A stretch of 64,000 bases of DNA from NCBI GenBank assembly GCA_008632985.1, contig QPGO01000201.1:1-64000 (forward strand), given 5' to 3'. A program made the translations under genes and the position numbers. Positions 640 through 58,320 of this stretch are shown here, one piece after another (the first letter of the stretch is position 1; each line of letters begins with the position of its first letter). A model generated the notes under the pieces. That model saw only the letters and a program-made list of their open reading frames with translations, was not told the DNA's origin and did not search any database. Origin of the DNA: Psammoneis japonica. Its lineage: Eukaryota.

Positions 640-2629
640 CATTATCATTCATGGTTGATAACCGTTTAGGAGATGCATTTTTATGAACGTTTGTACCTCT
701 TTAGCTACTGTGGGATCCCAGCCACAGAATGAAAGATGTCACGTTTGCTTTGCACCGTCAAAACAGCGAATCATCATCAGATTTACAGAAGAACAGTAGC
801 TAGAACCACCAAGATCAACAAAAGATGAGCTGCAAGCAAGCTAGGAAAGTTAGAGGAGTCGATCATTTTCGTAGGACGAGTGGAGAACAGAGCGCTCCTT
901 GAAATCACCCACATGGCACGGTGTGCTGTAGACTGCAGAAAGGCAAGCTCTTGTTCAATTTTGGTCCCGCTTTGCTCCTTGAAAAAGGCAGCGGACAACG
1001 GCATCAAACATGTTTCGTTAGCTTTAGCAGTCTTTCCAGAGCACTGTAGCTGCTGCTAGAGAGAGAGAGAGTCCATGCGCAATGGGTAGACTCCGTCGCA
1101 AGAAAGCATGATGTCATTGTGAGAAGAAAGGATGCATTGTTTCTGGCATCGGGACGGGAAGAAGAGGAATCGGAGATGATTGGATTGCGTTTCTCTGCTC
1201 TTCCTTCATCTCTGCACAAAGTGAGTGACCCACCTCTTGATCAACTGTTGACCAGTCCCACCACTCTGCAACTTGCACTTTGGCACTCTAGAGAGAGGAG
1301 CAAACACAGGAAATTCTGGGTCACAGGTGGTCTCCAGACAAAGCAGCCAAACTGCTCCACAGTTTTTTTCTTGAGATTTTCTGCCAGGCCCTGCTGCCAA
1401 CTCATGAAACAGCAAAACAACCTTTTCCTGTTGTTGCCAACACTGGCAGAGAACATTTGAGATGTGAACTCTGCTTCTCTGTTGACGACAATGGTGTCAT
1501 CACAGTTCTTGATGCTCTCCCATGCATCTGCTGTTTGTTTTGCTGTTGGTTGTGTGCAACTCAGCTTTTCTTTGTTCACGCACCAGAGCACTTGTTGGCT
1601 GTGTGCAAGAGAGCAGGGAGTGCAGCCCAGTGCCAGCTGCCCTGTGCAAAACAACAGATGTTGGCCACCACCATCAAAAATCATGGCACACCCACCACTG
1701 ACAACACCCACTCTAAGATTGCAACCTTGTGGCATTCCAAGAAGCTGTCAAAAATGTCACAGGCCACCCCATCTCTGACATTGGCAGTTGGCCTCATCAG
1801 CTGTTGCCACTTGACTTGCTGGACACAACCCTGCTCAAACCGCAGGGGACATCATTGCTGTCATTCATGATGCACTGAGGAAAACCACCATCTCCAAACA
1901 ACATGACCAGCACCATGGCTGATGGTGTGAATGGCAGGCAGTCCACCCCAACAAGAAGTCTGCTGCACCCCAACATGCCACACACTGGCAAGCACATTGA
2001 GCTTGAAAATGCACACTTGCTTTGCACTCTCTGGCTTCTGTGTGTGCTGCCAGTTGCTTGCAGAAAGCACCCAAGTTGGTCTTGCCAGCTGACACCCCAC
2101 CACCAGACCTCCCCCACGGAGTGGACAGCTGTGAACAAATTGAGGTGCCAGCAGCATCTTGGCTGTCCTGGCATCCAACAACTTTGCCTTGCTTGCACCA
2201 ACTTGCCAAGGACATTCCTTCTACAGCTTGAGCCACCCCCCACCCCCCAGCTGATCCTGCACAGTGGGCAATGATGCACGCTGTCACTGACAACAAACCC
2301 ATGAGCCCCCTTCAGGATCACACCAATCTGAGGCCAGCAGAGCTTGGCTGTGGTTTTGTGCATGCCTTTGGCGGCTGTCCTGGCAAGCACACATGAACTG
2401 AGAATCAGCAGAGCAGCTTGCACTTGCTGGCTGTGAAGGCTTGCACTGGGCAAACATGAGCACTCCTCACACCCCCCAAGCTGAGCTTGCCTGCATGAGC
2501 ATGTGTTCTTGCAACAATGGCACACACATGCAATGGCTGACAGCCACTTGCTTTGCTGTGCAGAAGAACTCAAGCAGACCTGCCTCAAACATGGGCATGC
2601 TGTGTGGAACCCACAGACTCTGACACACA

Positions 2630-3880
2630 CCAAAGAACTTGAAAATGAAGAATGCCATTGGTTGGCACAATTAAACAGCAATCAAAAACAGGGCATTTTT
2701 GTGAAAAAGAGCCTTGAAACCGTTTGAAATTTTGTGTGATCATCATTGTTCCTGTGCTTTTTTTGATGCTGGCAAATTTGCCAAGTTGGTTCAATTTCAT
2801 GTGCCAAGAGTGAATTCTTTTGTTCAAATGCCCTTGCTTTTTGGTGGAGGCAGAGAGAGGAAAGCATTTTGCTGGGGTGTTGCAGGCTTTTTAGCACATG
2901 AGCAAGTTTTCACTGTGTCATTTGGTTTGTCACACTTTTTTCATTGGCATGTTTTCATTTCCAGGAACCAAGGGAGCACAGATCGCATTGTTCTTGTTTG
3001 TGTTTTTTTGCTCAAATTGGGCAGGTGCAGTTATCCCATGGAAATTAATCGAATTACCAGAAGGAGAATTTGCAGCACCAACAAATGATATTAATACGAC
3101 TGTAGCACTTGCTTTGTGACTTGCCTGCTGTTGGCTCTTTGGGAAATCATTGTGTTTGTGGCCTTGCATGGGAAGGGATGCAAGCCCCTGTGACAGTTGC
3201 AAGGACATCTGTGTGGCTGCGTGCACTTTCCTTTGTGGCAAACTTGCACATTTTTTTGTGCAAACTGCAGCACACAACTTCAAAATGTGCCACAACTTTC
3301 AAAATGTGCACCACATGGGTGTGCACAATGTCTCTGCAAGACTCACAGTGCCAACTCCACACACACAAAAGCCCAGATGTGCATTTTCAAAATGAGCCAC
3401 AAAATTTTCAAAGTGCACATCTGGGTTTTTCATTGCACAGATTGCTGGCACAACCCCACGCGGCATCTGAGTTGAGACATTTTTTAAAAATTTCACCTGG
3501 GTGTTCAGGCATTTTTTTTGTGGGCACACATTTTGTGCGTGTGAAAAGCATGTGGGCTGGTGTGATGATTCATGCCAACAACAACCCAACCAGGTTGCAA
3601 ATGCAGTGGTTTTCCACAGAGCTTTTGTGCAGGTTCTTCCAGCAAAAAGGTTTGGACAACAATTTTTTAAAAAAATGCGCTGAAGCAGCTCCGCTTCTTC
3701 TGCCAGCTGATGCTCCACCAGAAGACATTGCAAAACCCTCATCACCAAGTTTCCAATTGCTTGGAATTTTTTCCAGCAAGTTGACAATTTCTTTGGTGAT
3801 TGGCGTTGTCAGCACAAACTTCAAATTTTTCAACTTTGGCCTCTGCACATGTTGCAGAAGATCTTGAATGAGTTGACATT
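2630..3880. other. Unclassified AT-richer insertion interrupting the copia integrase region
   Basis: Copia similarity is lost after ~2620 and resumes ~4150. The segment has A/T runs and repeated AAAATGTGC-like words (3270-3420) and contains the plastid fragment. No termini found. Confidence 0.35.
3012..3116 (+). pseudogene. atpI: Nuclear plastid DNA fragment (NUPT) of ATP synthase CF0 subunit IV/a
   Basis: Translates as [35 protein letters not shown], the conserved plastid AtpI segment. AT-rich plastid-like codons (TTA, GAA, AAT) and retained TpA. Confidence 0.9.
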
Positions 3881-6595
3881 GAAGTTGTGCAAATCTGCTG
3901 CTTCTGTCACAGCTGCTGGCTTGGCAACTGGTTTGGCTGCAACTCAACTCCTTTTTTGATCTGGGTCTTCAGAGTGCAACTCTGACAATGCCAGCCATGA
4001 CACCCCTGCATCTTTGGCAACTCAGCTGCTCCTGCTGTGGCATCCTTTGCTCCCAAAGATCCCATCTGTTTGGATTTGGTGGCAACTGTTGCAATGTCTT
4101 TTGTCCCATGTCTTGATGACTTGTTTGATGCACCGCTGCCCCACAGTGAGGGGCCACAAACCGTGCTTTGGTTTTGAGTTCTTTTGACTGTGATCCCACC
4201 ACACCATCAACCTGGATCTAGAGCAGGGAGCACACATCCCACAGTGGCAACCTGAGCTCAAACACAGCTGCTTGTTCTTGTCCATTGACTTTCATCATGT
4301 GACTGAAAATCAACCTGTGCTGTCCTGCGTGAAGGCTTCTCCTCTGCCCTCAACTCTGCAGGCCTGCCACAACTCTTCTTGGACCACAAGCAATGGCGAC
4401 CACATCCAATGCCAACTCAAGTCTATCACAGAGCCCACCATTTTGAATCTGTGTGCAAAACATGACATGACAAAACTTCTGGCTGAGGACAACTGGGAGA
4501 TGTTGGAAGATGGCGAGCTCATTCAACTGGGCATGTGTGAGAACCAACAAGGCATGTTTGGCCTGCCCACCCCTGCTCTGGTGCTGCAGTGTCCAACTGG
4601 TGAGTGTTGTTGCACCTCATTGAGAATGGCATGGAATGGGACAAGAAAGTTCCTTGCAGCATTTGTGGTGGAACCTCCCACTTAGGTTCTGTTAAGACAC
4701 TCAATCAAACCTGTGCCACACAATCAGCAGAATGACCAACAAACATCAGGGTGTTCTTTGCACTTGCAGCACCACTCAAGAGGCAGCAAACATGCTCATT
4801 GCACCACTGTCAGCAACACATTTGCAGAAACCCTGCCTCCCAAGTAAATCTTCTGCAGCATGCAAGCCAGCAAGGCATTTCAAAGCTGGTGGACCAATCA
4901 ACTTGGTCACCCCCTCTCCCATCACTGAGGACCAGCATGTGCTCCTGGCGGTGCTGCAAGCACTTGAAGAAGGTCGCCCAAAATCACCCAGGCTGAGGAG
5001 TGTGCACTCTGATTGTGTCATCTGCACTGGAAGTTTTCAATCTCAATCCTGCAGCACAGCACTGTGTGGTCAAGGGAAGAAGCACTTTTCTTGCAACAGG
5101 TCAATGACTCTGTCATTCCTGCTGACTCCAGTGAGACATGTCGCCGCATCTTGCACCTGTGACATCATGGACAAGAACATGGGAAGTGGGGACAACAAGA
5201 TCAAATGTCAGGGCTCACCTGAGCTTTTCCTTGGCTGTGATGTTGAGCAGACATGCAGCTGTGCCAGACTCCACAGCACATCCCATGCCAAATGAACTGT
5301 GCTGTGCCACCCACCGGCCAATGCCGGCAATGCTTCCCCTGCATCAAGCATCTCAACAAAACATCCACTCTTGTCAGTGCCATTGCCAACTGAGATGAGC
5401 TGTGTGGTTGCTGCTTGGGGGGATGACCCCAGTTTTGTGGTCACCAAGTTGAGCCAGTTTGTGTCTGACCCCCGCCAGGAGAGGCTCCGCACTTTGTGGC
5501 AGTGCAAGACATGTCCTGCAGCATCTCTGTGCAACCACTGCCAGGGTTTGGTCTCACCTGCTGGTGCATGGCTTCCAACAAGCACCCCCCATTTGCACCT
5601 CCACGATGGTTTCCCATGACAAAGTTGCTCAACCACTGCAGGCAGAATCTCGTCCCCCATGTGAGTGTGCTGGTGGCTGCAAAGACTCTGGCTGGGCAGC
5701 CCAACCACATCATTGTTGCATTTGAAAATGAGCGCAGTTTGTTGCAGAACATCAGATGCAGGCAAGATGGCATTGCATTTGCACTCCATTTTGGATGAAC
5801 TGTCTGTTCCACAGATGCAGCCTGCCCTCATCCACGAGAGCAACACCTGGGCCTCAAGTCTGCACAAGTGCCCCAACCCTGCTCAATGGACCTGCCATCA
5901 TGCCGACACACCACATGGGTGCCTTTTGCACTGAAAGACTGGGTCAAACAAGATCTGGTCAAACCAGACAGGATTTGGGCTGCTGCCAGCTGCAGTGACA
6001 CCCTTGTGCTCGGGCTTTGCACTGCTGCACCACCTCCAGCGTCACCCTTGTGCTCCAGCTCTGTTTTTGTCTCCCGTCATTTGGGTGCAGGCAGTTTTTT
6101 GTGCTGGGCATCACCGACTGCAGTGCACACATGTTGCAGCACCCAGGCAGCAGGTGGTGGTGTGGCAACAGCAAACCCCAGCACTCTGCACCAGCTGAAT
6201 GGCACTCCCATTCTCACATGCAGGAAGGAGTCTCGGTCAAAAACTGCCGCGCCGACATGTTTGCGAGCTTTCCCGTGCGGCCTGCGCTGTTCGGCTCACA
6301 CCCAAAATGGCCCGGCGCAGAAAAAACAACAGAGCAAGCATCATCGTACCGTGCACTCTGCATACGTATTGTTCTCTACGACGGCATGGGCATCATGCGG
6401 CAACAACACTCGCTGAACAAACTTCGAGGGCAATGGCGCAGTCGATCCGTCTTATTCACCCTTAATCTTCGTCGAACTTCTGAACAACGCCTAAAATCAG
6501 CAAAGTGCTTCGTTCTCATCACCACCAAGCCTCCTCTAGTCTTGCTGAAGTTTTGAGAGTAAGGCCTTCACGCACTCTACTCTTTCTTAAAAATC

Positions 6596-17890: not shown

Positions 17891-20080
17891 TTCATCTCGC
17901 GCACGTAGTGCGTGGTTATTAGACTGGCTGTAGGTGTGTGTGCATGTGCGAGGTGTGTAGAACATACGTAGCCCTAGAATTACCACTGAGTGAGTTGACA
18001 TGCGGTGGATTTCCGCCGGTGCACAATCTACCGGTGCGTGGTCTACATGGAACATATATTTATGTCGGTCTCTGAGGCTTTTACACAACATAAAATTTTC
18101 TTGTGATTTTTGTGAGCACACATGCAACCATTCAAAAAAGTGAGGAACACCCCGAAACAAATTTTCGAATCTGAACAAAAAAAATTTCTTTTCAACGGTC
18201 CGAACAGAGTCGCCCCGAAGCGCTTCTCAAAACATCTTCAGATTGGATGTGGTGAAACATGACACTGCAGGCAAAACAGAGCAGCTGTCGGCAAAATGGA
18301 GCTCAGCTTGATTTCAGCAGGATTCTGTGCACATTTCAATGAACACTCAACCACGCACAGCTGCACCTGGCAATTTTCGTGCCCGCTGGCTCTTGATTGA
18401 AACGAGGTCTCGCCACTCACTTTTCCCGTGGAAAACAAAATCCCGTCAAACACAAAACTCATCGTCTCGTCTCGACATCGCTTTCGACACGATGAAGATT
18501 GCACCCATTGCATCTGCACTTGTCCTCCTCTTTTCTGTTGCTTCCTTTCCTGTGACCACTCATCGTCTGGTGGGACAAGCTGCGACAGATCCAAAGGAGC
18601 AAGAGCTTGTTGAGAAGGCGCTCTTTTCTGACGGACCCGACACTCCACCGGAAGCTCCAGAACCTGCATCGCCCGCATCGACCCACTCTGCCAAATCTCA
18701 AGCTTCTTTGATTGATGAGTGGAGCAAGCGCATTCAAAATGGTGCTGCTTTTTCTCTTCCTGTCGTTCATGGCTCTCTCGATGTGAGGAACTGTCGCCCC
18801 TGCGATGCTTTCATGATGCTGCCGGGTGTGCCCAATTTTGGATGCCAGCATGCTCCGGCTCAAGCTTTTTTGTCTCCCCCCCACAATCATTGGATGTCGG
18901 CTCCTTGCTTTCGTCCACCTCCTGCTCCCCATCACATGCCGCCACACACACATTTTGGATCACCGCATGAGCGCCATTCTCATGGATCGCAGGATGCAGC
19001 ATTTGGAACCCCCGACTCGTTTTCAACCTCTGCACAGCGCAGAAGAGAACGAAACTGAAAGAGACGTGCTGAGTGCTGAGCGGAGGATCAAGCCGCAAAA
19101 GACGTCAAGCAGCAAAAGCGAGAGTGTGACACCCGGCATCTCAGCAGACATCCCGAGTTTGCTCTTCCCGTCAATCACATTGAGATTTCATCAACGCAAG
19201 ATTTGGAGGTTTCAAACATCACTGATCCCAAGTTTCGACACAGAACTTGACAAGTGGCTGGTGCCATTGACGATTCTTCTGACAGAGAGGTGAAATGACA
19301 GCACACTTTGAGTCGCAAGTGTTTCCATTTTGTTGGTCCCACTTTGTCGAATTTTTTTGCTCATGACTCTGCTTCATCTGTTCTTGCTCATCCAGATCTG
19401 CCAGCTGCCATTGATTCCTCCACCAACAATCACAGAGTTGCGAATGGAAGGAAGGAGCAATCTTGAGCACAAGCACAAGAAAGCCTGTCAACTCAAGAAT
19501 GGCAAGAAACTGCAAGGGCTCAACAACGCCAATCAAATGCAGAAGCCAGATTTTTCAAAGGAACGTCAATGGCAGAAGCAAGACTGCAAAACCGCCAAGC
19601 AACGAAACAAGCAAACAGACAAAAAAGGCAATCGATGGACGATGACCCTTCCTCCTTGTCCTCATCCTCATCATTGTCATCTGCTTTGTCCTCTTCTGAT
19701 GACCCTCCAGCTCCACCCTCTTCCCTTGATGAATGTTTTGAAGCTTGCAGGGATGGCCGGCATCCAGGTGTCAATCTGGAAGACCACCCCAATGTAAGAG
19801 ACATGATGTTGATTGTCGTCACTTTGCTCTTCAATTGTTCTCACTCTTGTTTGACTGGCCCACATGTGAAAGCTTGTCAAGATGAATTTGTGGACGGAGT
19901 TTCAAAGACAGAAATGATGCGGTGTGCCACTTGCAAGAAGCGCTGGTTCAACATGACCGTGAACAAGTCCGACCTGCAGCAGTGCCTTGCTTGTTCTCCA
20001 AGGATGTCAAGGAGCATGGCTTGAGTCGTCTCTCTGCAGCAAAGGACATGGACATCTGTGCCAAGGGACGTCCTGCACAC

Positions 20081-20469
20081 GATGGGTTCCAGTCCCAGGT
20101 GGGACTTTTTGTGACATTTGCCCCGCAGAATTCTACGTGCAAGCTCTGCAGTTCGTACTCTGGTCAATGGATGTGTTTGTCTTCGTCATAAAACAAACGG
20201 CCAAGTTTGTGGTGCACACATCCCTGTTCGTACTCGAAGTTTAGGACGATGCGCCTGCCCTGCGCCATTCTTAAGACACTCGAGAATGGCGCAGAAGAAA
20301 AAAATGTTAAAAGTTGTTGAATGGATCGCCTGACAATTGCACCATAAAATGACACAAAATTTTGCCAAAATCATGTAGAAATGCATGTGCGCGACATGCG
20401 ACGCGATTCAAAAAACTGTCGATGTCACAGTTCAGTGGTGCGAGGTCCCACCTAGACCTGGAACGCGTC
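20081..20469. mobile_element. MITE family A, copy 1 (approx. 25-bp TIR, 4-bp TSD ACAC) inserted in RepHel
   Basis: Left end GATGGGTTCCAGTCCCAGGTGGGAC, right end GTCCCACCTAGACCTGGAACGCGTC. ACAC at 20077-20080 and 20470-20473. Removing the element plus one TSD restores frame PAHLPKPSEVEEMLIA. Confidence 0.88.
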
Positions 20470-23400
20470 ACACCTGCCCAAGCCATCTGAGGTTGAAGAG
20501 ATGCTCATTGCTTGTGCTCACACTGTCATGAAGTGCTGTCGTCTTCAGTCCGGGCAAGTCGGGCACAAAGGGTCCGTTGTGAATCTTGAAAAGGACACAG
20601 ACAAAGTCATTGTGAGCCTGCCACTCAAGGTTTCTGACTTGCCAGTTGTTTTTGTCCTCTGAAAGCCAAACCAAAGGACACCAAATGGATGCAAAGACTT
20701 TCAGGTTCGCTGCGACAATGTCACAGAATGGCTTGTCTGGCTGAAGGAAAATCATCTGGGCCATCATGATGTCGACATTGACCTGGAAAATCTTTTGCTT
20801 CTTCCAGAGGATGGTTCAGTGGCAGACTCCATTTCTTCCATTTCAGATGAGAGTGAGCTGGCAGGTGATGCAAGTGAGGACCAAGACGCTGCTGCCAGTG
20901 GTCCAGAACAAGGTGGGGCAAGCGGACAGGAGGGCGAGGATGTCGATCTGGGCATCTGCCATCTGTCCCTCATCCAGGTCAGCAGCACGCCGAAATTTCA
21001 AAGACTCTCCGCAATCAATTTGATCCTGCTTCCGTCGTCCAAGAGATTGGAAACAACGGCCAGCCCGTCAATGACTGCACCTTTCCTCAGCTTCAAAGCC
21101 TGGCCTTTTCCACTCTCTTCCCGCGTGGCGACGGGGATGTCATGCACAACGATCGCCACGTCAATGTGGCCATGGTGGAGGCAAACAAGCACTTGCTTCA
21201 GCACGGCTGTTTTGACAACAAGGAGGAGGGAGAGTGGGTGCATCTGTTTGCACGCCACAATCGGTGGATGCATTGGGCCGAGAATGCTCTGCTGCTGCTC
21301 GACATCGTCACCAGGAACAAAAGAAAATGTGCCTGCAAAAAAAGTGCCCAGAAGATGCACAGCTCACCAAGGAAGAGCTGAAGCATGCAGTGCAAGAGAA
21401 CGGGCTGCACTTCAAAGAAATTGTTTCCAACATGCAAAAGTTCAATGCGAATGTCCCAGGTGGTGACTCACATTTCTGCAAGAAGAAGAAGGAGCTCAAG
21501 GCTCTGACAGACCAGTGCGGAATGCCCACATTGTGGTTTGCTCTTTCAGCCACCGACAACCACTGGGCGGACCTCAGTGCCTTGTTGGTTTGCAACTCTG
21601 ACTGTGAAGAGTTTTCAGAAGAAGAGAAAGCCACCTGTCATTGCAAGGCTGTCCGAGATGACCCTCACATTGTTGATGCCTTCTTTCAAGAACGGGTCAA
21701 TTTGATGATGAAGAGCTTCTTTGGAAAGAATGGCATGAAAACAAGCTGGACTTGGTTTTGGATCGAATGCCAAGCCCGCGGTGCCGCTCATGTTCACGGA
21801 TGTTTGCGACTGGAGGCTGACCCGGGGCCATCAGACCTGTCACAGGTTGTTTTGGAAGGAAGATTGGCTGCTTTGAAACTGTGCCAACAAGGTCTGCTGG
21901 ATGAGGATGACGATTTTGCCAAGGAGGGTTGTGAACTGGACATGTGTGAAGAGGAGTTTGAATGCAAAGATGACGAGGAGCTTTCTTTTGAACAGATGCT
22001 GCAAGCTGTCAGAGATGGAAAGGAGGCACAAGACATGGTTGTCACCTTTGATGATTTTCTTGTCTCTGCGTTTCACCCCAGCCCTCCAGAAGATGCTGCA
22101 ACCGACGAGCGGCTGGAGTCCACCAAGTTTTGTCCCGGGGTGGATGGTGGAGTGCACCCAAGCAATGACAGGCCTCAAGATGTGCTGGAGATGACAAGAG
22201 ATGACCGCACTGGCAACTGCTGCAATCTGTGCAACACGGTGGAACGGCATGCATGCAAGCCCGGCGGCTGCTGTGACCGCAACAAGTCCAAGTGCGACAA
22301 GGCAAAAGCAGGTGAACACATTTTGGACTGTTGCTTTGGACATCCTTTGCATCTTTCAAGAATTTCTCGTCTGGTTGTTCTAGAGAAGCTTGTCAAAAAC
22401 AAAGCTGGAGAGACCTGAAAAGTCTCAAGAATGGAAATGGCATCGGCACGCAACGACAAGTGGATCAACAGTCATTGCATCCCAGTGTTCGAGGTTTGGA
22501 GAGCCAACATTGATTTCCGACTTGTTGCAGATGTGCCGGTGAGGTTTTTGGCACATGAGCAAGCATGTCTCCAAGTCTGAATCCAGCATGACGTCCATGC
22601 AAATGACCGCAATGGTTCGCAAAACAGTGGAGCAGAAAATCAATGATGGATGCAGTGCACAGGCAGTGTTGAAGAGCACAATGGCCAAGCTTTTGGGTGT
22701 GTCTAGTTTTGATTTGATCCTTGTGTGACTTTACATTTCCACTCACAGTGTGTTGTTCATTCTTTGAATGAATCAAAATGGTCGCCCCAAACAGGCAAGC
22801 GAATGGTTTCCAAACAGGAGACGTGCCATCTCATTTTAAGTTTGCCTCTTGTCTCTTGCTCCCACACCTTTGTCACTGTCAATCTCAAAAATGCCTCCAG
22901 GCAAGTTGACCTGGAGGAGTCGGATGATCCTTCTGATGGAGATGTTGGCGCCGATGCAGGAGCGGATTCTGCTGCAATGCCGACGGTCGTTGATGCACAT
23001 GCTGCACGCCTCAACCAAGAAGCCTGGGCTGATTGTTCAGTTTTTGCAGCATTTGAGCCAGGACTCAGAGACCTTGCTCCACAAGAATTTGCCGCCAGAT
23101 TCTACGTTGGCAAGTCCGGAAAGCACAAGAAGAAAATCCGCCCCCACCAGAAACCAAACACGGCAGCTGTTTTTGCACCTCGAGTTCCAAGTGCTCCTGG
23201 TGGTCGCAACTTTGTCAAGTGCTGCAAGCACTCATTGATCAAGCATTGACCATGGAGTGGCACACTCGAATCTGCTTGGGGTGGCACCAACGCATCCAAT
23301 GATGACATCATTCATGCTTGGAGCCAACATGCTCTGTTTCTGATGTGACAAGGTCGACAAATTCCTGGTTTCCTTCAACGCGAGATTAAATCAAGCTTGT

Positions 23401-24112
23401 GCTTGCCCAACAGGAATGGCGTGAATGACAACGTTGATGTGCCAATGGGTGACAACTCGGACTCTGGTCCAACGGATGCAAGCCAAGACTCTTGGATGGA
23501 TGTTGGGCATGCCACGCAAATGGACAATGTGCCAGCTCTTTCTGGAAGCAATCTCAAATGGTCAGAGGATCATGATTTTTCAGAACTCAAGCATGGCTGT
23601 CCAGAATGTGATGGATGGGACGAGGAAGTGGAGCAAAAGTGTGATCATCTCATGTCTGACCCCGTCGATCGAGCTGCAAGGAGTCAAGTTTCTTTCAACT
23701 TGCTCAATGAATGACAGTGTCTGGCTCATGATGCAATTGCAAGTGCTCTTGTTGGAGAAAGTGAGGGACAGTGTGTTCTCCTTGTTGGGGTGGGAGGTGC
23801 AGGAAAATCATTTGCTGTTGATGCTGTCACTGCTGCTCTCTGGGACTGTGGACTTCCAACAAGCAGCTGAGCTCTTGTGGCTGCAACAGGCAAGGCTGCG
23901 ATGGTCATTGGCAGATCTGCAGTTCACTCTCACCAAGAAGGACTGGGAATGCCCCTCTCTGGCAAATGTTGTCATCCTCTCACGAACAAAAATCTTGCTG
24001 AAGCTCAAGATGGGTTTGCGAATCTCAAGCTTTTGATTCTTGAGTTCTCGATGCTGTGTCAAAGAGAGCTTCGCTGCATTGACCAGAGATTGCGTGAAAT
24101 CAAAGGTGTCAA

Positions 24113-24686
24113 NNNNNNNNNNNNNNNNNNNNNNNNNNNNNNNNNNNNNNNNNNNNNNNNNNNNNNNNNNNNNNNNNNNNNNNNNNNNNNNNNNNNNNNN
24201 NNNNNNNNNNNNNNNNNNNNNNNNNNNNNNNNNNNNNNNNNNNNNNNNNNNNNNNNNNNNNNNNNNNNNNNNNNNNNNNNNNNNNNNNNNNNNNNNNNNN
24301 NNNNNNNNNNNNNNNNNNNNNNNNNNNNNNNNNNNNNNNNNNNNNNNNNNNNNNNNNNNNNNNNNNNNNNNNNNNNNNNNNNNNNNNNNNNNNNNNNNNN
24401 NNNNNNNNNNNNNNNNNNNNNNNNNNNNNNNNNNNNNNNNNNNNNNNNNNNNNNNNNNNNNNNNNNNNNNNNNNNNNNNNNNNNNNNNNNNNNNNNNNNN
24501 NNNNNNNNNNNNNNNNNNNNNNNNNNNNNNNNNNNNNNNNNNNNNNNNNNNNNNNNNNNNNNNNNNNNNNNNNNNNNNNNNNNNNNNNNNNNNNNNNNNN
24601 NNNNNNNNNNNNNNNNNNNNNNNNNNNNNNNNNNNNNNNNNNNNNNNNNNNNNNNNNNNNNNNNNNNNNNNNNNNNNNNNNNNNNN
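24113..24686. other. Assembly gap (N run) inside the PIF1 helicase
   Basis: Run of N with helicase motifs on both sides. Confidence 0.99.
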
Positions 24687-25533
24687 GGCTCCATCTCTTC
24701 CAAAGTTTGTGTGGGTTGACTTCAGCAGAGACTGTGGCGGAGGATCATTTTTTCCCGACGACGACAGTTGCCGAGGTTGGGTGCCAATTCACCCTGTGAC
24801 TGCAGCCGTGTGCACTCAAAAGCAAGATGATGTGGGCTGTGATGAACACACTCACACTGTGTTGCCCTTGAAGCTTTGCTGGGCAATGACCATTTGGAAA
24901 GCTCAAGGCCAAACCATCAAGCCCCATTTTGTCATGGATTTGTCCAACCGCGAGAAGCAGCATGGTTTGACCTGCACTGCTTTTTCCCGTGCCCAACGTC
25001 TTTCAGATGTTGGGTTGGTCAATGGTGTCATGCAAGATTGACTTTGTAAGAAGGCGTGCAAGCACAAGAAAATGGACAAGCGTCTGCAGGAGAAGAGGCG
25101 TCTGGAAGCGCTGCTGCGAACGACCATCCAAGCTTTTCGACAACCGCTCTGTGCTGCAGATCAATCCAGTCTAGCTGTTTTGTCCTTCTGTCCTGCCACA
25201 TTCCTTGAAAACAACCAATCACCACCTTTGAGGGCAGGCAAACTCTGTGTGACTGAGATTCAGGTTGCAGCACGTCGAGTGGCACCCCCTTCCTTGGAGG
25301 CGCCACTCTCAGTCTCGCCGGGGAGCAACCCCTTGGCTCTCGTGGGCCGTCTTGCAGAAAAAAATTGCCAAGGTGCCACTGCAGTCAGCTGCCTTGGCAC
25401 AGTTGCTCACAATCATCAGAGACAAGAGCAACCTCGTCTGCCCTTTGTGTCGGGACTTTCCCAAAAGTGGCAGATTGTGGATTTTAAAATGAAGAATGCT
25501 CCTCACCCTTGGACCACTCCACACAACATTCAA

Positions 25534-25682
25534 TGTTGGCATCCACTTGAGTCACCCAGCAAGGTGTTGGCATCCACTTGAGTCACCCAGTGAGGTGCAG
25601 GTGTCCACTTGAGCCACCCAGCAAGGTGTTGGCATCCGCTTGAGCTGCCTCGTGCCTCATGTGATGTGGCACCCGCTTGAAC
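25534..25682 (+). repeat. 31-bp tandem repeat, about 4-5 degenerate units
   Basis: TGTTGGCATCCACTTGAGTCACCCAGCAAGG at 25534, with variants at 25565, 25596 and 25627 and a partial unit near 25667. Confidence 0.85.
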
Positions 25683-25686
25683 CGCC

Positions 25687-26887: not shown

Positions 26888-27034
26888 CGGCCCCGTTTGA
26901 AGTGGTGTCAACTTGAGCTGCCCAGCATGATGTGACATTTTCCTGCAGAAACATGGACAAAGATTGGAGGAGAACAAGAAGTTGAGAAAACCAAAAAACA
27001 CATTGAATCAACAGATTCCGTCAAATGCAGTGGA

Positions 27035-34649: not shown

Positions 34650-37600
34650 GTTAAGTGAAATGGAAGATAGAAAAGGAGAAATGAGAAGATAGAAGAGGAG
34701 AAATCAGTTCAAAGGAGCAGAGATTTGGCAAGATTGATTTGACAAGAAGGAGAAGAGAGAACAAGTGGAACAGATCACAATTTGTGGTGAAAGGGTGATT
34801 TGAAAAATGCAGGTTCGCATTTTGCAGTGCCATGGACTGAGAGTCAGCAACTTTGGCAACTGGATTGCACAACATGACATGCATTAACAGTTTGTGAAAA
34901 TGACCCACCTGAGAGCAAGAGACCATGTTCTTTGTCCAGGAGCATCAGCAAGAGAGAGAAGATTTTGTCATTTTCTTCACAAAGCTGATGTTGCTGGAGA
35001 AAACACTCATGGGCAAATGGGGGGTTGCAGTCATGAAGCAACTGTCATTGACATTGGTGACAAGCTCAGCAAGAATTCAGATTGTGTCAGCAGAAAGAAA
35101 ACAGTCACTCAGGTGCTGATGGTTGGTGCCAAAGGAGTTGAAGTCACAAAAGAAGCACACAAGCTCAGCTGGCACAAAATCAAACAACACAAGACATTTG
35201 GGAGAGTGCCCACACTGTGGGCCAACATGACTGTGGCAGCAAGCAGCACTGGTGGAGAAAGTGGCAGCCAGCTTTTAAGATTGAGAAATGGTTGAAAAAA
35301 GATCGCTCAGAACAGGAGGACATCACAGATGACTGTCAAGACTTCTGCGCATGGCTGGAGGAGTTGTGCGTGCTCTCCAGCACACTCAAGCAGCGGGAGA
35401 CATGTCAATGCCATGCTGACAAAGAGATCAAACTGGAGCACAAGTGCCGTGAACCATGGCACAAGTGCAGTGAGCCAGAGTTGAAAAATCAAGGACCAAA
35501 GTTAGAGAACTTTTGTCAAAAATGGCCAGAAGGACATGGGGCTGTGTGGTGAGACCATTGCTTCCCCCATGGATGGGTGCAAGACTTTCAAGAAGAAGTG
35601 CAGAGAGAAAGGGAGTGGAGGGTGGGTGGACCACCTGCAGGCTCCAGGTTCAAAAAAATCAATGAGAGCACAAAAAAACCCCTTGCCATGCAGGCCAGTG
35701 GGAGCAAGCACATGTTCTGGGCAAGTGTGAAAAAATGCTGTGAGAAGGGCCACAAAGCCAACAAGAATAACAGCAGCAAGTGTTGTGGCTGAAGAAGTCT
35801 GAGTGTGACTGCCACAAGTGCTGCAAATGGAGAGACTCAAGGCAAAAAATTGCTGGAGCAAGAGAAAGAAAAATGACCATGACAAAAGAAGTCAAACAAG
35901 GTGGCTTTGTGAATCTTTGAGGTTGAGGACAAGATTGAGGAGTGAGGCAAAATGGTGCCTCAATTTCTTTCTTGAATGGGTCAGATTGGAAGCACATTCT
36001 CAAGTCAAGAAGAACGACACTTCCAAAGTCAAGCTGGGGTGGTTGGTGTGTGGCAGCTCTTTTTCATGCTGTGCTTTGAAGAGAGTGCAGTTTTGGCGAG
36101 TGTGCATCTCATGCACTGTCATGGTGTGAATGGTGTGAAATGTCAGAAGAGAGTGCGCATGACAGAACAGGCTCAAAAATGTTCTTGACTCACTTGACAA
36201 GAAAGAAATTGACCATGATGACAACACACCATTGCCAGCCAGCTGCGCTTCTAGCTGCTGCTTGCTCCAACAATGGCAATGCAAAGGACAGCTGCAAGCT
36301 CATGTGTTTGTCACAACAAAATCCAAGTTGCAATGCCGGAGGTCATTGTTGAGAAACAGCACACACAGATTTGTCCAACACCTGTTCAACTGATGACAAG
36401 GAAGAAGTTTTGAACATTGAACTTCTTTGGTCATTGTCAATCAGATTCAGATGGCACGCCAGCTCTGTGGCACCTGATTTGCCAGGTGGAATGGGAAAAA
36501 ATGGCAAGACTCTGTCACCAGGATCTGGATGCATGGCTCACATCAAGTGCACACTGGAGGGCATGAGGAACCTTTGAGAAGCAAACAAAGAGATTGCACT
36601 TGCATGAACAAGCCAAATCTGGGAAACTGTGCAGTGATTGCAGAGATGTGCACTCAGCCAAATCGTTTTCCACCAAAAGACCTCATGTGAAGCAGGAGGA
36701 CTTCATTGAGCTCAAAGCAAAAGGCTGGATGACCAAGTGAAATGAGCTCAAGGCCAAGCTTCAAGATGAGGCCAAGGAAATGCAAGATGGGAGCACCATG
36801 CTGTTCAGCATTGCTCTGGCAATGTTCACGTCACACCAAAGTCTCTGCCAGCTGCAGTGTGTTCAGTCTTGATGGCAATGCTTGCAAAAGCCCAATGTTG
36901 CACAAGCAGATGATGTTTGTGACAACAACTCAGCTCTGGGCAATGTCCCCCCCCCCGATGTGTCATTTTCCTGGCAGGTGACAATGGCAAAGATGTGGAC
37001 AGCACTGGCTCACAAATTGAGGAAAATGGGAGAGCCCAAGACAACACAGATGACTCTGGTCTTGGGAGTGTGGTGATGGGTGATGATGACATGGGTTGAG
37101 ACACACAAGTGCAGGTCAGCTGAGTCAGGAGGTGCAATGTGGTGGAGCACATGGCAACGCAATGCCAGAGCACAAGTCAAAAGCAACAAACATGCACAAT
37201 CTCCAGTGCACAGGCTTTGGCCAAGCAAGAAGACAAACTTGAGAGGAGACTGATGTCGCTGAGGCCAAGGAAGTCAATGTGGTGCTTGGATGCACCAACC
37301 CATTGAAAATGACAGAGAGGCAATGTTGCACAGAAACAAAAAGACAAACAAGGGCAAAAAACTTGAAAAAAGAGTGCAAAACGAGTTTTTGACCAAGTGA
37401 CTGGATTGTAAAGAGAAAAGCAGAAAGACTTGAAAGAAGCTAAAAAGTGAGTGTGCTCTTGCCTGTCAAGGAGAACGTGTGCACAAAAGAAGAGAGACTG
37501 CATGCTGTTAGAAAGAAGCCAAGATGATGCTGAGTTTGTTGCAATGAGCTGTTTGCTCCAGCACCTGCAGCCCAAAAGTGCAGCACTGGGCAGTTTTGTT

Positions 37601-38470
37601 GCAGATGGTGACCAATGAGTTTTGGTTGGGGGTTTCTAAACACAAGTGTGGCTGGTGGCTCAGCTTGTGCTTGTTTGCTGCCATTTTGGAAAAGACATTG
37701 TGAGCACAAGGGCAAGGTGTGTGATGTTGCAGATGCTTGCTCCTGCTTGGAAAAGCACAGAGCAGGGATGACGGCCATGTTTGTCAAGAGATTCTTGTGG
37801 AAGCAGCAAAGAAGGGCAGAGCTCAGAGCTCAGCCCAGCAGGAGCAAGATGTGTCCTTCTTGTGCACTGTGCTGTCAAAACAAAGAGAGTGCATTGAAGA
37901 GGGTGGCATTGATGCACACCAGCAATGGGCCCACCTGTGGAAGGATGTGTTTGCCTTTGAGGAGCTTCTTGCTGCTGACTCTTGTGAATGACAAAGCAGT
38001 TTTTGCACAGTGCAAGCTGCACACCCAGAGGAAACCCAAGGATTCTGAGACACCAGGGGTGCCAGGAGAGATGTTTTGATGAAAGCAGGTGAGGGTCACA
38101 AGCCTCCTCATGGGTCAAAGTGGACGCATCACTTTGTGGTTGGAGACAGACCAACAATTTTGTGCGTGTGCTGTGTTGAGGGGGTGTCGGGCACAGATGA
38201 CACATTGTTTGCTCAATCTGACAAAGCCATGTTGAAAGTGCTGAACAGACAGTTGGCGCATTTGAATGTTGCTTTCACATGATGAAGTCAAGGACACCAC
38301 AGGAATGGCTCGGGTCCATTTTTGCACATGTTTGATGGCTCCTGCCTCTGATCAAGTGGAAGTGGGCGGCACACAAAAAACAACCACAAGAGCACTCCAA
38401 GTCATTTTGTGCCTTTGGATGGAATGTTGTTGATGAGCATCATTGTTTTTGGCAGCGAACAAACTAGTTG
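34650..38470. other. TpA- and CpG-depleted relic of unidentified coding-like or repetitive DNA
   Basis: About 8 TpA in ~3.6 kb by hand count. Purine-skewed plus strand with broken Tyr-free ORFs. No family recognised. Confidence 0.55.
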
Positions 38471-38584
38471 ATCAGCCAAGCATGCGTTTAGAAATTTTTT
38501 TGTCGTTGTTGTGAGAGTCGGTGAGATGGATGTTACTGCGGTGCCGCAAACATCATTCGTGACCGCGCCCCGCGGTGACTGCGA

Positions 38585-51646: not shown

Positions 51647-51736
51647 TACAAACCAACTTGGATAAATATTTATCTTTCTAGAGACCGGGTTAAAGAGACG
51701 CAATTGAAATAGAACTCAACAAATACAGAATGTGCA

Positions 51737-53490: not shown

Positions 53491-54459
53491 TTAGAACCAC
53501 TCTTGCTCACTTCGTATATTGATTGCAAGATATCCTTGTGAGGTGCGAATGATACGCATGGAATCATCCAAATAGAGAATTTCAAACTGGCCAAACGGTG
53601 CGCTCAAAGGACCTTTCCATTCCACAGGCTTGGTTTCCAATATTCCAACCGGTAGTCCGTCATTGCGAATAGCATCCATCATGGCATTGCCACTTTCACG
53701 AATAGCATCAAACATAGAATTTCCTGTACTAGTAGTACTCTCTGCAGTTTTCGTGTTGGAGGACGTTTCCTCGTCTGCCTTTCCCACCAAATTGAGTCCA
53801 ACCAATTTGAGATTCACCTTGGTGGGATCTTCGGGAGTCGACACTCCTTCTGTACAAACCTTTTGAAGCACTCGAGACTTGTCTGTACCGCTAAGGGGGA
53901 AACTCGCTGCCCAATCAGGACGACGCCATTCAATCACATTGTTAATCTGCGGCGGATTGCATTCTTGTCCAATGCGTCCCAACTTGGCGGACGCAAGAGG
54001 TCCACCAAAGTCAAGAGACGTGATATCAGGTGCATCTGTGTAAACAAGAGTCCACTTTCCTTCCAGAGTCGGACCCGATGGTTCCTTTGGTACCGTTTCG
54101 TAGTATGCGGACGCTGGCTCTTCAGTAGTCATGTATGGAGACAATTCCTTGACGAGTTTCTTGACACGGTCTCGATCATCAGCTGACGCTTCGAAACCCC
54201 GCTTGGTCGAGTCAGCAATGTCTAGAATCTCTTGCTTCAGACGAGCGGCTTGAGGGTCTACGTCGTGGACCGGAAGAGCAACGTGTTCTTCTTCCTGATC
54301 TTCGCTGGTGTCACTCGGGAATTCATTTGTATACCGTAAACGAGTGCCTGAAGCAGGAGAAAAAGAGAAACTCGATGAAACCAAGGGAGCGGGAAGAACA
54401 GCAAACCCAGCTGTTGACAGAGGCAGAGAAAGGTACAAGAAACTGGAAATGATCTTCAT
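53491..54459 (-). CDS. PAP/fibrillin family plastid lipid-associated protein
   Basis: Bipartite presequence (STAG-FAV), LKQEIL...TKRGF, LEGKWTLVYT, GQFEILYLDDSMRIIRT. Confidence 0.92.
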   Translation of the reverse strand: MKIISSFLYLSLPLSTAGFAVLPAPLVSSSFSFSPASGTRLRYTNEFPSDTSEDQEEEHVALPVHDVDPQAARLKQEILDIADSTKRGFEASADDRDRVKKLVKELSPYMTTEEPASAYYETVPKEPSGPTLEGKWTLVYTDAPDITSLDFGGPLASAKLGRIGQECNPPQINNVIEWRRPDWAASFPLSGTDKSRVLQKVCTEGVSTPEDPTKVNLKLVGLNLVGKADEETSSNTKTAESTTSTGNSMFDAIRESGNAMMDAIRNDGLPVGILETKPVEWKGPLSAPFGQFEILYLDDSMRIIRTSQGYLAINIRSEQEWF

Positions 54460-57400
54460 AGTGCTAGTAGCAATGCATCAAGACGATGGAGGATGGATAG
54501 AGAAGTGAGAATGCTAAAAAGAGCCCCAATGCCATGCAGAACGTGTCATCGGTGCGAACACCTCACTGCTGCCTGCAGAAAATCAATCTTCGAAAGATTT
54601 CCCGCCATTTTTTGACACCTGCCACGTCAGCAGTCATTACAACATCGCGGCTGCACTTAGACATAAATTCTATTGCCCTCCAAATGTCTTTGAAACAACG
54701 TAACTCTGGATTTGTCTCCGCCGCTGTCAAACCTGCCAACAAGATCACAGCAGTGTCAACCATGAGCTTCCCTCTCAAAATGCATTGCAACGACAGCTTC
54801 ATGTGCATTTGATGCTTTTGATCATCACTTGGAAAAAAGTTGTTTGCACTTCGCCCTGCCAAACACACAGCAGCCACAGAGGGCAAACAGCTTGTGATGT
54901 TGAGTCGAGTTGATGGCTCTGACAATGGATCAATGTGAGCACGTGAAAAGATCTTGCACAGACAGGCCCCAATGCAATGTGGCTTGAGCATCAATTTTGC
55001 AGAATCAGTGGAGAGAGTGAGGAGCGAGGTGTGGATGACGATGGCGGGAGACCGCACCTGGCAGAGAGTCTCTGCACCTCCATGCTGCCCAGCTGAGGTG
55101 CAAAACGTCATTCCATGGAAATCAGACAATGCACGGTGGAGGACAAGAGAAAACTGCTGACAATCATCAAACCAAAACCTCTTTTTCTCACTTGCTGCTC
55201 CTGCCATCTGTGTGGTTTCTTGCTCAGCAAAAAAATGACAAGATGACGCAGCTGCAGCTGGCTCCTGGAGGTGCCAGACAAACCAGCTCCAGCTGGAAAC
55301 CCACAGAGTTGAGATCCCCACCCAGACAGAGTGCAATGGCAGTCAGCTGGAAAAGAAGCTTGCCACAGCTCCATGCTCCATTCCTTGTGGGGCTCAGCTG
55401 TTGTGCCCGCTGTGTGCAGCGTTTTTCCTTTTCTCAAGCAAAGGGACTCAGACAAGCCCATGACTCATTTGGAAAGGACAGTCTGTGCTCTGAAGCTTGT
55501 GAGGTTGTCTTGCCACAGCTCTGTGCAAGTGAGGCAAGCCCCCTGCAGTGTGTGGCAGCTTGGCTCCAACAAGTTGGTGAGTCAAATGGCCCTGTGTGAC
55601 ATGAGCAGCACCTTGCCCGCAATCTGCTCTCTCAGAGCTTTTTTTTGCCCATTTGATGATCTTTGTTGCCCAACAACAAATGCAAAGAGGAGCTTCTCAT
55701 GTTTTTTGCTGTGAAATGTCCTCGCAAGAAGATTGCCATGGGTGGACAATTGAAGCTCTCTTGGTCGCTGATGGGGGAAACAGAAAGAGGTGCAGCGTGT
55801 TGCCGCCATGAAGAGAAAGAAATGTGAATCCTTTGGTGCTTGAATCAAGGGATGGTTGAGGGGTTTTGACATGTCAAAAAAGCTGGAGGCACCGCTGTTG
55901 CTCAGGTGATGGTTGGGAGAGGAGAGTGCGTCATTGTCAAGGCCAAAATGGAAAAGAAAAGAAAAGAAGAACAACAGGGGTGCCTTTGAAAATGTCAGGG
56001 AAGAGCACGCTGGTTGTTGCTGTTGTCAGACATCCAACCAGGACAGAGCATTTGCAAGAGGGGTGTGCCGTTGTTGTTGGCAGATGTCAGATGGGAGGGC
56101 AGCAAGCTTGTGAGGTGTGCAGCGCGGAAAAAAGGACAGATTTGGCAGAAACAGAGCAAAACAACTGGGAGAGAGCTTGCAAATGGAAGGAATGCACAGG
56201 TGACTTAAATTGAGCAAAAAAGATTCAATTGGTTGTGACTTGAAAACTGTCAAGAAACAAAATTGACATCCACGTAAATTGAAGATCTGTGGAAATCATC
56301 AGCACAAATGTGAAAATTCTTTTAATTGTTGATGAGCAATGCTCTGTGGTTGAGCATGGAAACATGTTGCAGATGTTTGGCAAATTTTTGCCAAGGTGTG
56401 CCAGTGGCACCTGACCATTGGTCCACAAAGAACATGGCTGAAGGTGCATTTTCAAAGCACCGCCTGTTCAGCTGAGCACACAAGAAACTTCTTCATGACA
56501 GCTGCTTTGCAAGTGCACAGATTTTTCACATTTTGTTGGCTGTTTTTTGGAGTTGATTTGAAAAACAAGGTCAGCTCCTCCTGCGGCTGGTGTGCTGCAG
56601 CAGATTTTAGAGGACAAGACACTTGGGTCATTTTGGACAAATCACTTGTGTGCTGCAAGCAAGTGCCTCTGAAGCAGGAGAAAAAGAGCAACTCAATGAA
56701 GCCAAAGGAGCAGGAAGAACAGCAAACCCAGTTGTTGACAGAGGCAGAGAAAGGTGATTGAAACTGGAAATGATCTTCATGGTGCCAGCAGCACAACAGC
56801 CGATGTCACATTGTGTCATTGGTGTGAACAGCTCACTCATTTGAAAGATTCCCCCCACCATTTTTTGACACACCTGCCACATCAGCAGTCATTGCAATGT
56901 TGCACACCTGAACTTAGACACTGGCCCCACTGTCCCAATGTCTTTGACACAAATGACGCAATTTGTCTCCGCCCCTGTCAGACACATGCTGGCAGAACAC
57001 CGCTGCCACCAACCACAAGCTTTCCTTGCCAAACACATTGCAGCAAGAGCTGTTTTTGTTTCAAATGCAAATGCCACAACCTCCCTGTGCCACAGCGACC
57101 AATTGCTGTGGCTTTGTTGCTTTTGATCTTCTGCAAAAAATGAAGAACAACAGTGGCTGGCAAGTCCATCCGAGGCACTGGGTCAAGCAGCTCTTGCTGC
57201 TGGCAGATCGGCGCCAGCATGTGAAAGGATGACAGACATGTTGGTGCCAGCACAAAATGCCTTGCATGATGCTGATTGTGTGGACTCAATGGAGAGCTGC
57301 TCTTTGTGGAGTTTTGAGGAGAGGAAATCTCCAAAAGCCCAAGAAGGGAGCCAGAAACAAGAAGACCGACACCGAAAAGCCCCCCCCCCCCCCCCCCCAC

Positions 57401-58320
57401 CTTTGCATGGCCTGACCAAGATGCAAAATGTTGCTCAAAGAAAAGTGCACACTGCACAGTGCTGGAGGACAAAAGGAAACTGCCGGCACTCTTTGAAAAA
57501 AAACGACAAACCATTTTTCTCTGTGCAAGAGAAGAGCTGCACACCAGCCCTTCTTGGTGCAGTGCTGCACAGGATGGCTCAATGCAAAATGGTGGTTTGT
57601 TGACCAGCTAGACATGCCAGTCAACAAGCTCCAGCTTTGAGCTAAAAAAACCCAGATCTGTTGGGCAGAGCATCCTTGGAGGAACATCGCCTCTCTGGAC
57701 TCTTCTGGCATCACAACTTCTTCGGAGCTGTGCCCACTTGTTGCTGCCTGAGAGTCAACAAAGTGGTGTGCTGGTGCATGCCTTCAACATGACTCATCAC
57801 AGCTGCCTGACAGCATTGAAATTCTGTGATGTGCAGGAAAATCTCACATGGAGGCACACAGCTCAAAAGAGATGCTTGTCCCCACTCAGCAAGAGATGAG
57901 ATGGCTTGCCATCACAGCCAGGCGCAGGGGTGACGGCAACGAGGAATTGTTGGCATGCTGCAACTCTGTTTGTTCCATCCCTTGTGGGGTCCTTTCATCA
58001 ATGACAGCCCTGCCATGTTTCTTCTCTTGAGGAAAGCAACTCAGACAAATCCATGGCTGGTTTGGAAAGAGGACCTTTTGCACTCCAAAGCTTGCACACT
58101 GCAGTCATCTTGCCACAGCTATCTGTGCAAGACACTGCACACTGTGGTGTGTAGTGGCTTGATTCCAAGAAGTCAAGCCAAACAGCTTTTTATTGTGAGC
58201 AACATCTTGTCCAATTGTCTTGCAAAACAGACGACATTCTGCTTTTGGCCTTCTTCTCATGTTTTTCCCTTTTGTGGATCTTTGTTGCCCAATGACAAGT
58301 CCAAGAAGGGTATGACGACG
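54320..58320. repeat. Degenerate tandem segmental duplication (offset ~2.3 kb), including a dead copy of the fibrillin 5' end at ~56640-56780
   Basis: 54328-54472 aligns with 56647-56793; 54543-54662 with 56813-56920; ~55135 with ~57460; ~55658 with ~58277. The copy translates MKIISSFNHLSLPLSTTGFAVLPAPLAS. Confidence 0.85.

Follow-up and report, generated by a model that had tools for sequence, protein, structure and literature searches.

Loss of TpA and CpG in gene-free blocks of a diatom genome: a candidate TpA-directed A:T to G:C mutation process

Introduction

This report concerns a stretch of 64,000 nucleotides from the diatom Psammoneis japonica (NCBI GenBank assembly GCA_008632985.1, contig QPGO01000201.1, positions 1 to 64,000 of the forward strand), referred to below as the window. 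Next to genes of ordinary composition it holds four blocks in which the dinucleotide TpA is nearly absent, CpG is depleted, and TpG and CpA are enriched. An earlier reading of this DNA, made from its letters and open reading frames (ORFs) without database searches and called here the sequence-only reading, had taken the blocks for the work of a repeat-targeted hypermutation system that turns TpA into TpG or CpA. We probably see in them silent, non-genic domains of the diatom genome that accumulate two context-specific transition processes, both of which end in TpG/CpA. The features on which the argument draws, including those of a Helitron and of a family of miniature inverted-repeat transposable elements (MITEs), are as follows.

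1290-6346: block 1 (5057 bp), void of TpA and CpG and rich in TG/CA, with no origin assigned
3030-3105: island of normal TpA and CpG content within block 1 (75 bp)
18092-32418: block 2, void of TpA and with CpG about halved; home to a Helitron, to inserts of a MITE family, to an N gap and to a long orphan ORF
20080-20469: young MITE-like insert with terminal inverted repeats, keeping 10 TpA and 23 CpG
20663-22725, plus strand: Helitron Rep remnant with DUF6570, Helitron_like_N and an HMSKHVSK motif; it contains frameshifts and no Tyr
24113-24686: N gap of the assembly (574 N), inside block 2
25686-27361: fragments of the same MITE family, older and in partial decay
28383-32228, minus strand: open frame of 1282 codons with a single Tyr
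34691-38465: block 3 (3775 bp), void of TpA and CpG, with no origin assigned
53491-54459, minus strand: PAP_fibrillin gene
54320-54798, plus strand: original of a duplication, its gene side intact up to 54701
54702-58120: block 4 (3419 bp), void of TpA and CpG, with a mutated duplicate of a host gene 5' end inside
56639-57051, plus strand: the mutated copy, comprising the PAP_fibrillin gene 5' end and promoter, inside block 4, found by comparing the window with itself

Results

TpA content of the four blocks

Together the four blocks, whose limits were set from TA-free gaps, hold 88 TpA in 26,004 bp (3.4 per kb), compared with 1484 in the remaining 37,422 bp of the window (39.7 per kb). The sequence-only reading had described TpA-poor blocks next to TpA-rich genes, and this contrast is borne out; its limits for the four blocks agree with ours to about 100 bp. 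A few short young inserts account for 27 of the 88 residual TpA, and the older block parts keep 61. The observed/expected ratio (o/e) of TpA is 0.03-0.11 within the blocks and 0.57 outside, and the ratios of CA and TG are 1.47-1.96 within the blocks versus 1.17 (CA) and 1.15 (TG) outside. Block 1 contains 18 TA and 51 CG (o/e 0.06 and 0.16, with CA at 1.83 and TG at 1.96), block 3 contains 9 and 27 (0.04 and 0.13), and block 4 contains 7 and 46 (0.03 and 0.23); in block 2, the ratios are 0.04-0.11 for TA and 0.56-0.64 for CG. Seven TA-free gaps of at least 1000 bp occur in the window, the longest measuring 1928 bp. When the same 1579 TpA were placed at random, the largest gap in 1000 trials was 606 bp, and at the TpA density found outside the blocks the probability of a TA-free gap of at least 1000 bp is 6e-18.

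Contigs assembled from a public sequencing run reproduce these bases. Block 3 is spanned by one contig of 3550 bp with 0 differences, and block 2 is matched by contigs of 576 and 720 bp with 0 and 1 differences, respectively, which rules out an assembly slip. The run is probably that of the assembly's own sample.

CpG loss and the balance of pyrimidine-purine steps

CpG is depleted in the same blocks, where its density is 24.5 per kb, versus 55.3 per kb outside. Its o/e is 0.13-0.23 in blocks 1, 3 and 4, 0.56-0.64 in block 2 and 1.00 outside, and the edges of TpA and CpG depletion coincide within 100-200 bp in blocks 1, 3 and 4. CpG decay had been held to be absent from the blocks; the counts and the shared edges contradict this. 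The total density of pyrimidine-purine dinucleotides (YpR) is 239.1 per kb in the blocks and 239.2 per kb outside. Per kb, the blocks have 36.3 fewer TA and 30.8 fewer CG, and 67.0 more TG and CA combined. Since the totals are equal inside and outside, the loss of TA and CG equals the gain of TG and CA, which is what would be expected of transitions within YpR acting on host-like DNA.

The two losses do not run in step everywhere. The TpA process is separate from CpG decay, because in block 2 TpA is gone (o/e 0.04) and CpG is only about 40% depleted (o/e about 0.6); decay of methylated CpG does not cover the whole footprint. In rate, the TpA process equals or exceeds CpG decay, and in block 2 it is faster or earlier.

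A duplicated host-gene fragment in block 4

The self-comparison of the window bears out the presence of duplicated DNA in block 4 and allows the mutated copy to be read against its original, the pair being short (about 480 bp). Within the aligned stretches the copy has lost 11 of 12 TpA (six to TG, four to CA and one to CT) and 12 of 13 CpG (eight to CA, two to TG and two to other dinucleotides), and 233 of 338 other dinucleotides persist (Fisher p 3e-5 for TpA and 1e-5 for CpG). The gene-side original keeps the 12 TpA and 13 CpG of the aligned part. Outside TpA, A>G is found at 8 of 109 A and T>C at 9 of 73 T. Conversion to TG or CA thus affects 10 of 12 TpA, compared with A>G or T>C changes at 17 of 182 other A/T sites; because the latter changes are infrequent, the excess is specific to TpA, and an excess of this kind over other A:T to G:C changes is what the sequence-only reading had foreseen.

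The Helitron Rep in block 2

Pfam places DUF6570 at 20663-21463 and Helitron_like_N at 21216-22415 (E 1e-21), which bears out the Helitron that had been suspected in block 2. The Rep ORF of 400 aa contains no Tyr and 6.5% Cys, whereas its 31 homologues have 1.3-5.3% Tyr in the matched region. At the seven columns where most homologues carry Tyr, the Rep reads H, C, C, C, F, F and F; it retains 0 of these 7 consensus Tyr columns versus 97 of 127 other consensus columns. Three changes of R to C and one of R to W are expected products of CpG mutation. In the alignment, WFRIEYQxRG of the homologues appears as WFWIECQARG in the Rep. Downstream, in another frame, HMSKHVSKSE aligns to motifs of the YMTKYVTKSE type in 10 of 10 homologues among the matches listed, and both Tyr of the YxxKY motif, which we take to be the catalytic tyrosine pair of HUH Rep proteins, read His. 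The homologue alignments thus uphold the readings of ECQARG and HMSKH as former Tyr positions now occupied by Cys or His. All 31 environmental relatives of the Rep, found on metagenome contigs, have a TpA o/e of 0.34-1.21 in the matched part, versus 0.04 here.

Paralogous contigs show 423 differences from the Helitron. Among the 40 differences listed, 17 are single exchanges between CpG and TpG/CpA, and seven are double exchanges between TG and CA. The doubles were considered as proof that TpA had been lost independently in each copy and were dropped, as CpG ancestors give the same pattern. A second HMSKH string at 26255-26269 on the plus strand lies in an ORF without a match to Helitron proteins and is probably due to chance. 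The N gap at 24113-24686 sits where the helicase part of the Helitron is expected; no helicase domain was found in the ORFs flanking it.

A MITE family of graded age

The MITE-like element, of about 390 bp with terminal inverted repeats of about 20 bp, is inserted within the Helitron. One contig omits 20075-20469, resembling an empty site. The summed contig depth on the element is about 43,000 (7,000-44,000) versus about 55 on genes, a sum that does not give the number of copies. Where 13 TpA of the young copy can be aligned, the old fragments read TG four times, CA four times, another dinucleotide four times and TA once; the converse, a TpA in the old fragments that is altered in the young copy, occurs four times. 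TpA is kept in the young MITE and mostly lost in the older fragments, and the decay is therefore progressive: in old DNA the changes have run to completion, and young inserts show them only in part. As judged by alignment, the duplicate, the loss of Tyr from the Rep, the 31 relatives and the MITE copies show that the changes are mutations of formerly normal sequence.

Strands, edges, flanks and stop codons

The counts of TG and CA in six sub-blocks are 581/614, 599/569, 396/376, 410/368, 431/414 and 380/356. TG and CA are intermixed at random (runs-test z -1.3 to +1.0), and their dispersion among counting windows is 0.7-1.5 of the binomial value, not above that outside. Strand-coordinated clusters, such as would come from single-strand deaminases or edited transcripts, were not found in the blocks. 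The changes are strand-symmetric, and each site is independent. The strand-symmetric, TpA-specific A:T to G:C process that the sequence-only reading had proposed, distinct both from repeat-induced point mutation (RIP) of fungi and from CpG decay, thus stands on the evidence of the duplicate, the Rep and its 31 relatives.

The residual TpA depend on their flanks (R, purine; Y, pyrimidine). YTAR makes up 39 of the 61 residual TpA in old block parts (TTAA 15, CTAA/TTAG 16, CTAG 8) versus 254 of 1488 outside, and RTAY makes up 1 of 61 versus 458 of 1488. ATAC occurs 0 times in old block parts versus 245 times outside, and ATAT 0 versus 97 times. With the young inserts included, the flank bias has a chi-square of 72 (p 2e-16). 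YTAR contexts are spared and RTAY contexts almost fully erased. A strand rule by which the A of TAY and the T of RTA would be changed is compatible with 6 of 6 Tyr codons of the Rep: the base before His is a purine in 3 of 3 cases, and the two Cys with a preceding C obey the rule.

Measured from mechanically assigned ORF starts, the distance to the block edge upstream is about 250 bp for UCH, about 120 bp for sulfatase and about 240 bp for PAP_fibrillin. Edges at gene boundaries fit a chromatin domain better than homology.

By the genetic code, a change of TpA to TpG or CpA never makes an in-frame stop, and it removes TAA, TAG and every Tyr codon. TAA and TAG together amount to 4.9 per kb in the blocks, counting both strands, versus 34.2 per kb outside, and the only stops left in the blocks are TGA. 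TATA and AATAAA signals would also be removed by the TpA process. As no new stops arise and Tyr codons and signals are lost, elements would be disabled by missense and signal loss; as TAA and TAG are removed and none is made, 'ghost' ORFs would stay open.

Blocks 1 and 3, the long orphan frame and ORF scans

The sequence-only reading regarded three blocks as transposable element (TE) or duplicated DNA. This holds for parts of block 2 (Helitron and MITE) and of block 4 (the duplicate), and it falls short for the copia element proposed in block 1. No Pfam hit to copia was obtained there, even at E <= 5. For one block 1 ORF the Atlas offered a weak lead, with clusters that were unnamed or called 'RxLR 161-like' scoring 0.84-0.85 and RVT_2 not appearing before rank 22, and it returned nothing for a second block 1 ORF; copia is thus unconfirmed. 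Seven of the 18 TpA of block 1 lie at 3032-3103, in its island of normal composition. The overlapping ORF at 2895-3116 (plus strand) has a weak match to ATP-synt_A (E 0.0033), and the island may therefore be a recent insert of organelle DNA.

The contig over block 3 (34936-38484) has a depth of 34, versus about 50-65 on the adjoining genes. Block 3 may be present on one haplotype only.

The probability that the frame of 1282 codons is open by chance is 7e-23. It gave no Pfam hit and no homologue among 8000 scored candidates, and contigs over its region have a single-locus depth of about 55-60. Either this frame is what remains of a lost gene, its ghost, or it belongs to a live orphan gene able to tolerate the process. 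In total, 216 stop-free ORFs of at least 70 aa overlap the 26 kb of the blocks, far more long ORFs than genes carry; a Pfam scan of all 216 recovered only the Helitron. Scans of the window for tRNA genes and Rfam families found nothing.

Neighbouring genes

The best named relatives of the sulfatase ORF are from the centric diatoms Thalassiosira, Discostella, Skeletonema, Cyclostephanos and Cyclotella, at 53-62% identity. Those of the UCH ORF bear the truncated names 'Pseudo-' and 'Dact', taken as the diatoms Pseudo-nitzschia and Dactyliosolen. The PAP_fibrillin protein carries at its N-terminus a signal peptide and then an AG|F motif, an arrangement that we assume to be typical of heterokont plastid targeting. 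These features place the window in a diatom that has no near relative among the named species of the database.

Discussion

Two transition processes in silent domains

Within the proposed domains lie a defunct Helitron, the debris of MITEs, the duplicated piece of a gene and relics beyond identification. The first process acting on them converts TpA to TpG or CpA, a change whose real-time occurrence is on record for the rhizarian Bigelowiella natans (Mettrop et al., bioRxiv 10.64898/2026.01.13.699255). The second converts CpG to TpG or CpA. It is most simply deamination of 5-methylcytosine (5mC), because diatom TEs are CpG-methylated, via DNMT5 according to PMC9998398. For the first process, a putative enzyme acting on duplex DNA within a chromatin or methylation domain would change one base of the palindromic TpA. 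The simplest and most likely candidate chemistry would be deamination of adenine to hypoxanthine, for which the preprint provides a precedent; a mutagenic modification of thymine is equally compatible with the sequence data. The process would be slow and continuous, unlike the one-generation burst of RIP.

Several findings weigh against this interpretation or limit it. The sample consists of four blocks in one 64-kb window. Support from the read-built contigs is not independent, as they probably derive from the very sample that was assembled. The duplicate pair offers few sites (12 TpA) and is old, 31% of its other dinucleotides having changed. Three of the lost Tyr columns of the Rep carry Phe, which is not a product of the TpA process; Phe at those columns is also found in 7-12 homologues. 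The strand rule fits 3 of 6 half-sites in the duplicate and fails at the other 3. Finally, TpA is restored in none of the 40 listed of the 423 differences between the Helitron and its paralogous contigs, so TpA loss may predate the divergence of the Helitron copies; in this family it may be older than the last duplication.

Alternative explanations

Since TpA is self-complementary, T to C on one strand is indistinguishable from A to G on the other, and a thymine modification at TpA, for example a TET/JBP-type conversion of T to 5-hydroxymethyluracil (5hmU) or 5-formyluracil that mispairs with G and yields T to C, would leave the same footprint. 5hmU is enriched at TpA in dinoflagellates, trypanosome telomeres carry base J at the T of TpA, and 5-formyluracil causes mutations. 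The palindromic dependence on RTAY/YTAR would suit a duplex-recognising enzyme of this type. We consider it an unlikely route, though one to be taken seriously; the only candidate for the signature in print, according to the available text of the preprint, is an ADAT2-type deaminase, put forward by prediction. Targeting by repetition, the central element of the sequence-only reading, is unsupported. A homology-triggered, RIP-like process that mutates TpA and CpG, perhaps via the RID-related DNMT4, is improbable. Such a process would suit the multi-copy Helitron in block 2 and the duplicate in block 4, and DNMT4, whose function is given as unknown, is common and widespread in diatoms in the available text of PMC9998398. 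However, the gene-side original of the duplicate is untouched, the apparently high-copy MITE keeps its TpA, and block edges follow genes. Block 3 and the region at 28.4-32.4 kb in block 2 are hit and yet have contigs at single-locus depth at a likeness of at least 90%, where copies diverged below 90% escape the contig comparison and past repetitiveness is possible. The main target in B. natans, too, is single-copy in the available preprint text.

That the blocks arrived poor in TpA and CpG, for instance by horizontal transfer, and were never mutated in situ would agree with the failure of any Helitron paralogue to restore TpA in the 40 listed differences. This is highly improbable in view of the host-gene fragment that shows the conversions against its own original, of a Rep that, lacking any Tyr and carrying His at both motif positions, cannot represent a functional ancestral form, of the normal TpA content of 31/31 relatives, and of a YpR total equal to that of host DNA. 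Editing of element transcripts from A to I by an ADAR-like enzyme, fixed by reverse transcription, is raised in the discussion of the B. natans preprint, and a preference for 5' U would fit TpA. We find it scarcely credible here: the targets are not confined to retroelements but include a DNA transposon of the rolling-circle type, a MITE and a fragment made up of promoter and gene, the counts of TG and CA are nearly the same in each of the six sub-blocks, with no strand-coordinated runs, and TAG and TAA survive, although ADARs favour 3' G. An artefact of assembly or sequencing, GC-biased gene conversion or selection can be given almost no credence either. Read-built contigs, albeit probably from the same sample, reproduce the blocks, the edges are sharp and the pattern is dinucleotide-specific; gene conversion would not be specific to TpA and would oppose the loss of CpG in the same DNA.

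Implications

A near-saturated footprint in a diatom would mean that the process is not confined to one species, and it may be widespread in the stramenopile-alveolate-rhizarian (SAR) supergroup, to which a large share of the ocean's primary producers belongs. Some diatoms are transformable models; should the signature occur in one of them, the enzyme would be open to a knockout search, and a natural A:T to G:C enzyme on duplex DNA would interest base-editing work. For annotation, TpA-void DNA, with few stops and many long spurious or Tyr-less 'ghost' ORFs, is a trap for gene prediction, and TE relics within it escape profile searches. Tentatively, and with more doubt than confidence, one may go further and suppose a chromatin-directed DNA base-editing defence common to diatoms and chlorarachniophytes, either old and SAR-wide or transferred, in which a duplex enzyme at RTAY brings about A:T to G:C changes in 5mC domains. 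If so, the enzyme of this shared defence would be a natural double-strand adenine deaminase or thymine modifier, mobile DNA would be disabled through Tyr codons, TATA boxes and poly(A) signals with no stops made, and the system would join RIP as a second mutagenic genome defence of eukaryotes.

Comparison with known systems

To our knowledge, a context-specific mutagenic genome defence is firmly known only as fungal RIP. RIP changes C to T, mostly at CpA, creates TpA and stop codons, lowers GC, hits both copies of a duplication within one sexual cycle and relies on a RID/DNMT4-type enzyme. The likeness consists in the inactivation of mobile DNA by context-specific transitions that leave a dinucleotide footprint. 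In contrast to RIP, the process described here destroys TpA and stops and is GC-neutral once CpG loss is added. The RIP signature of C:G to T:A changes at CpA, raising TpA, is replaced by removal of TpA and a rise of CA/TG. Furthermore, one member of the duplicate pair is untouched: the original has its full 12 TpA and 13 CpG, of which 11 and 12 are gone from the copy. Decay of young inserts is still partial.

Decay of 5mC at CpG would explain the CpG to TpG/CpA half of the pattern and its confinement to TE domains, and its spectrum fits, with 10 of 13 CpG turned into TG or CA in the duplicate and CpG o/e of 0.13-0.64; it is unable to remove TpA. The deaminases that edit mobile elements in animals (APOBEC on DNA, ADAR on RNA) and the tRNA adenosine deaminases TadA/ADAT share with the proposed process the deamination of bases, used or usable against selfish nucleic acids. 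APOBEC enzymes change C to T in strand-coordinated clusters, whereas the changes here are unclustered and strand-symmetric. ADARs act on RNA and favour 3' G, whereas TAG and TAA are spared here. For the ADAT enzymes, tRNA A34 is preceded by U33, a natural 'UA' context.

The closest description is that of B. natans. The sequence-only reading knew of no description of the signature, but a preprint of 2026 reports TpA to TpG/CpA hypermutation in this rhizarian (Mettrop et al., bioRxiv 10.64898/2026.01.13.699255, version of 2026-04-14). According to its available text, 231 of 302 nuclear mutations in mutation-accumulation lines fell in integrated giant-virus and virophage regions, and 230 of these 231 were A to G or T to C, all at TpA, at a rate about 1000 times the background. 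The genome contains 124 TpA-poor, CpA+TpG-rich clusters, and TpA-depleted coding sequences are enriched in reverse transcriptase and DDE domains. The main target is single-copy, and an ADAT2-type deaminase is proposed by prediction only (10.64898/2026.01.13.699255).

With the cut-offs given there, Rho_TpA of at most 0.43 together with a Rho_CpA+TpG of at least 1.52, the blocks of the window fall below the first, and most of their counting windows lie above the second. In counting windows that lie fully within blocks, TA o/e is 0.00-0.16 and the TG/CA ratios are 1.5-1.99 in nearly all, with 1.44 in edge window 18001. The blocks are discrete and their flanking genes normal, a mobile or duplicated origin being seen for parts of blocks 2 and 4 only. 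As far as the preprint text at hand goes, the two cases are alike in the change of TpA to TpG/CpA on both strands, in discrete regions, and in a target that need not be repeated. They differ in host, B. natans being a chlorarachniophyte (Rhizaria) and P. japonica a diatom (Stramenopila), and in target, with DNA of nucleocytoplasmic large DNA viruses (NCLDV) and virophages there and a Helitron, MITEs and a duplicated host-gene fragment identified here. Depletion is near total here (o/e 0.03-0.06), versus 0.45 for the NCLDV insert of B. natans. CpG is lost in the same domains and RTAY/YTAR flanks have an effect here; the available preprint text makes no mention of CpG and gives no flank context. 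In B. natans mutation was seen in real time; here it is read from its footprint.

A search of the literature for a TpA-void signature in diatoms, including term look-ups in papers on diatom TEs, found no report. The signature is already in print for another lineage, and the diatom is the second. Relative to the available text of the preprint, the diatom host, TE and gene-fragment targets, near saturation, the coupling to CpG loss, the dependence on RTAY/YTAR and the consequence that no stops are made are features beyond those described for B. natans.

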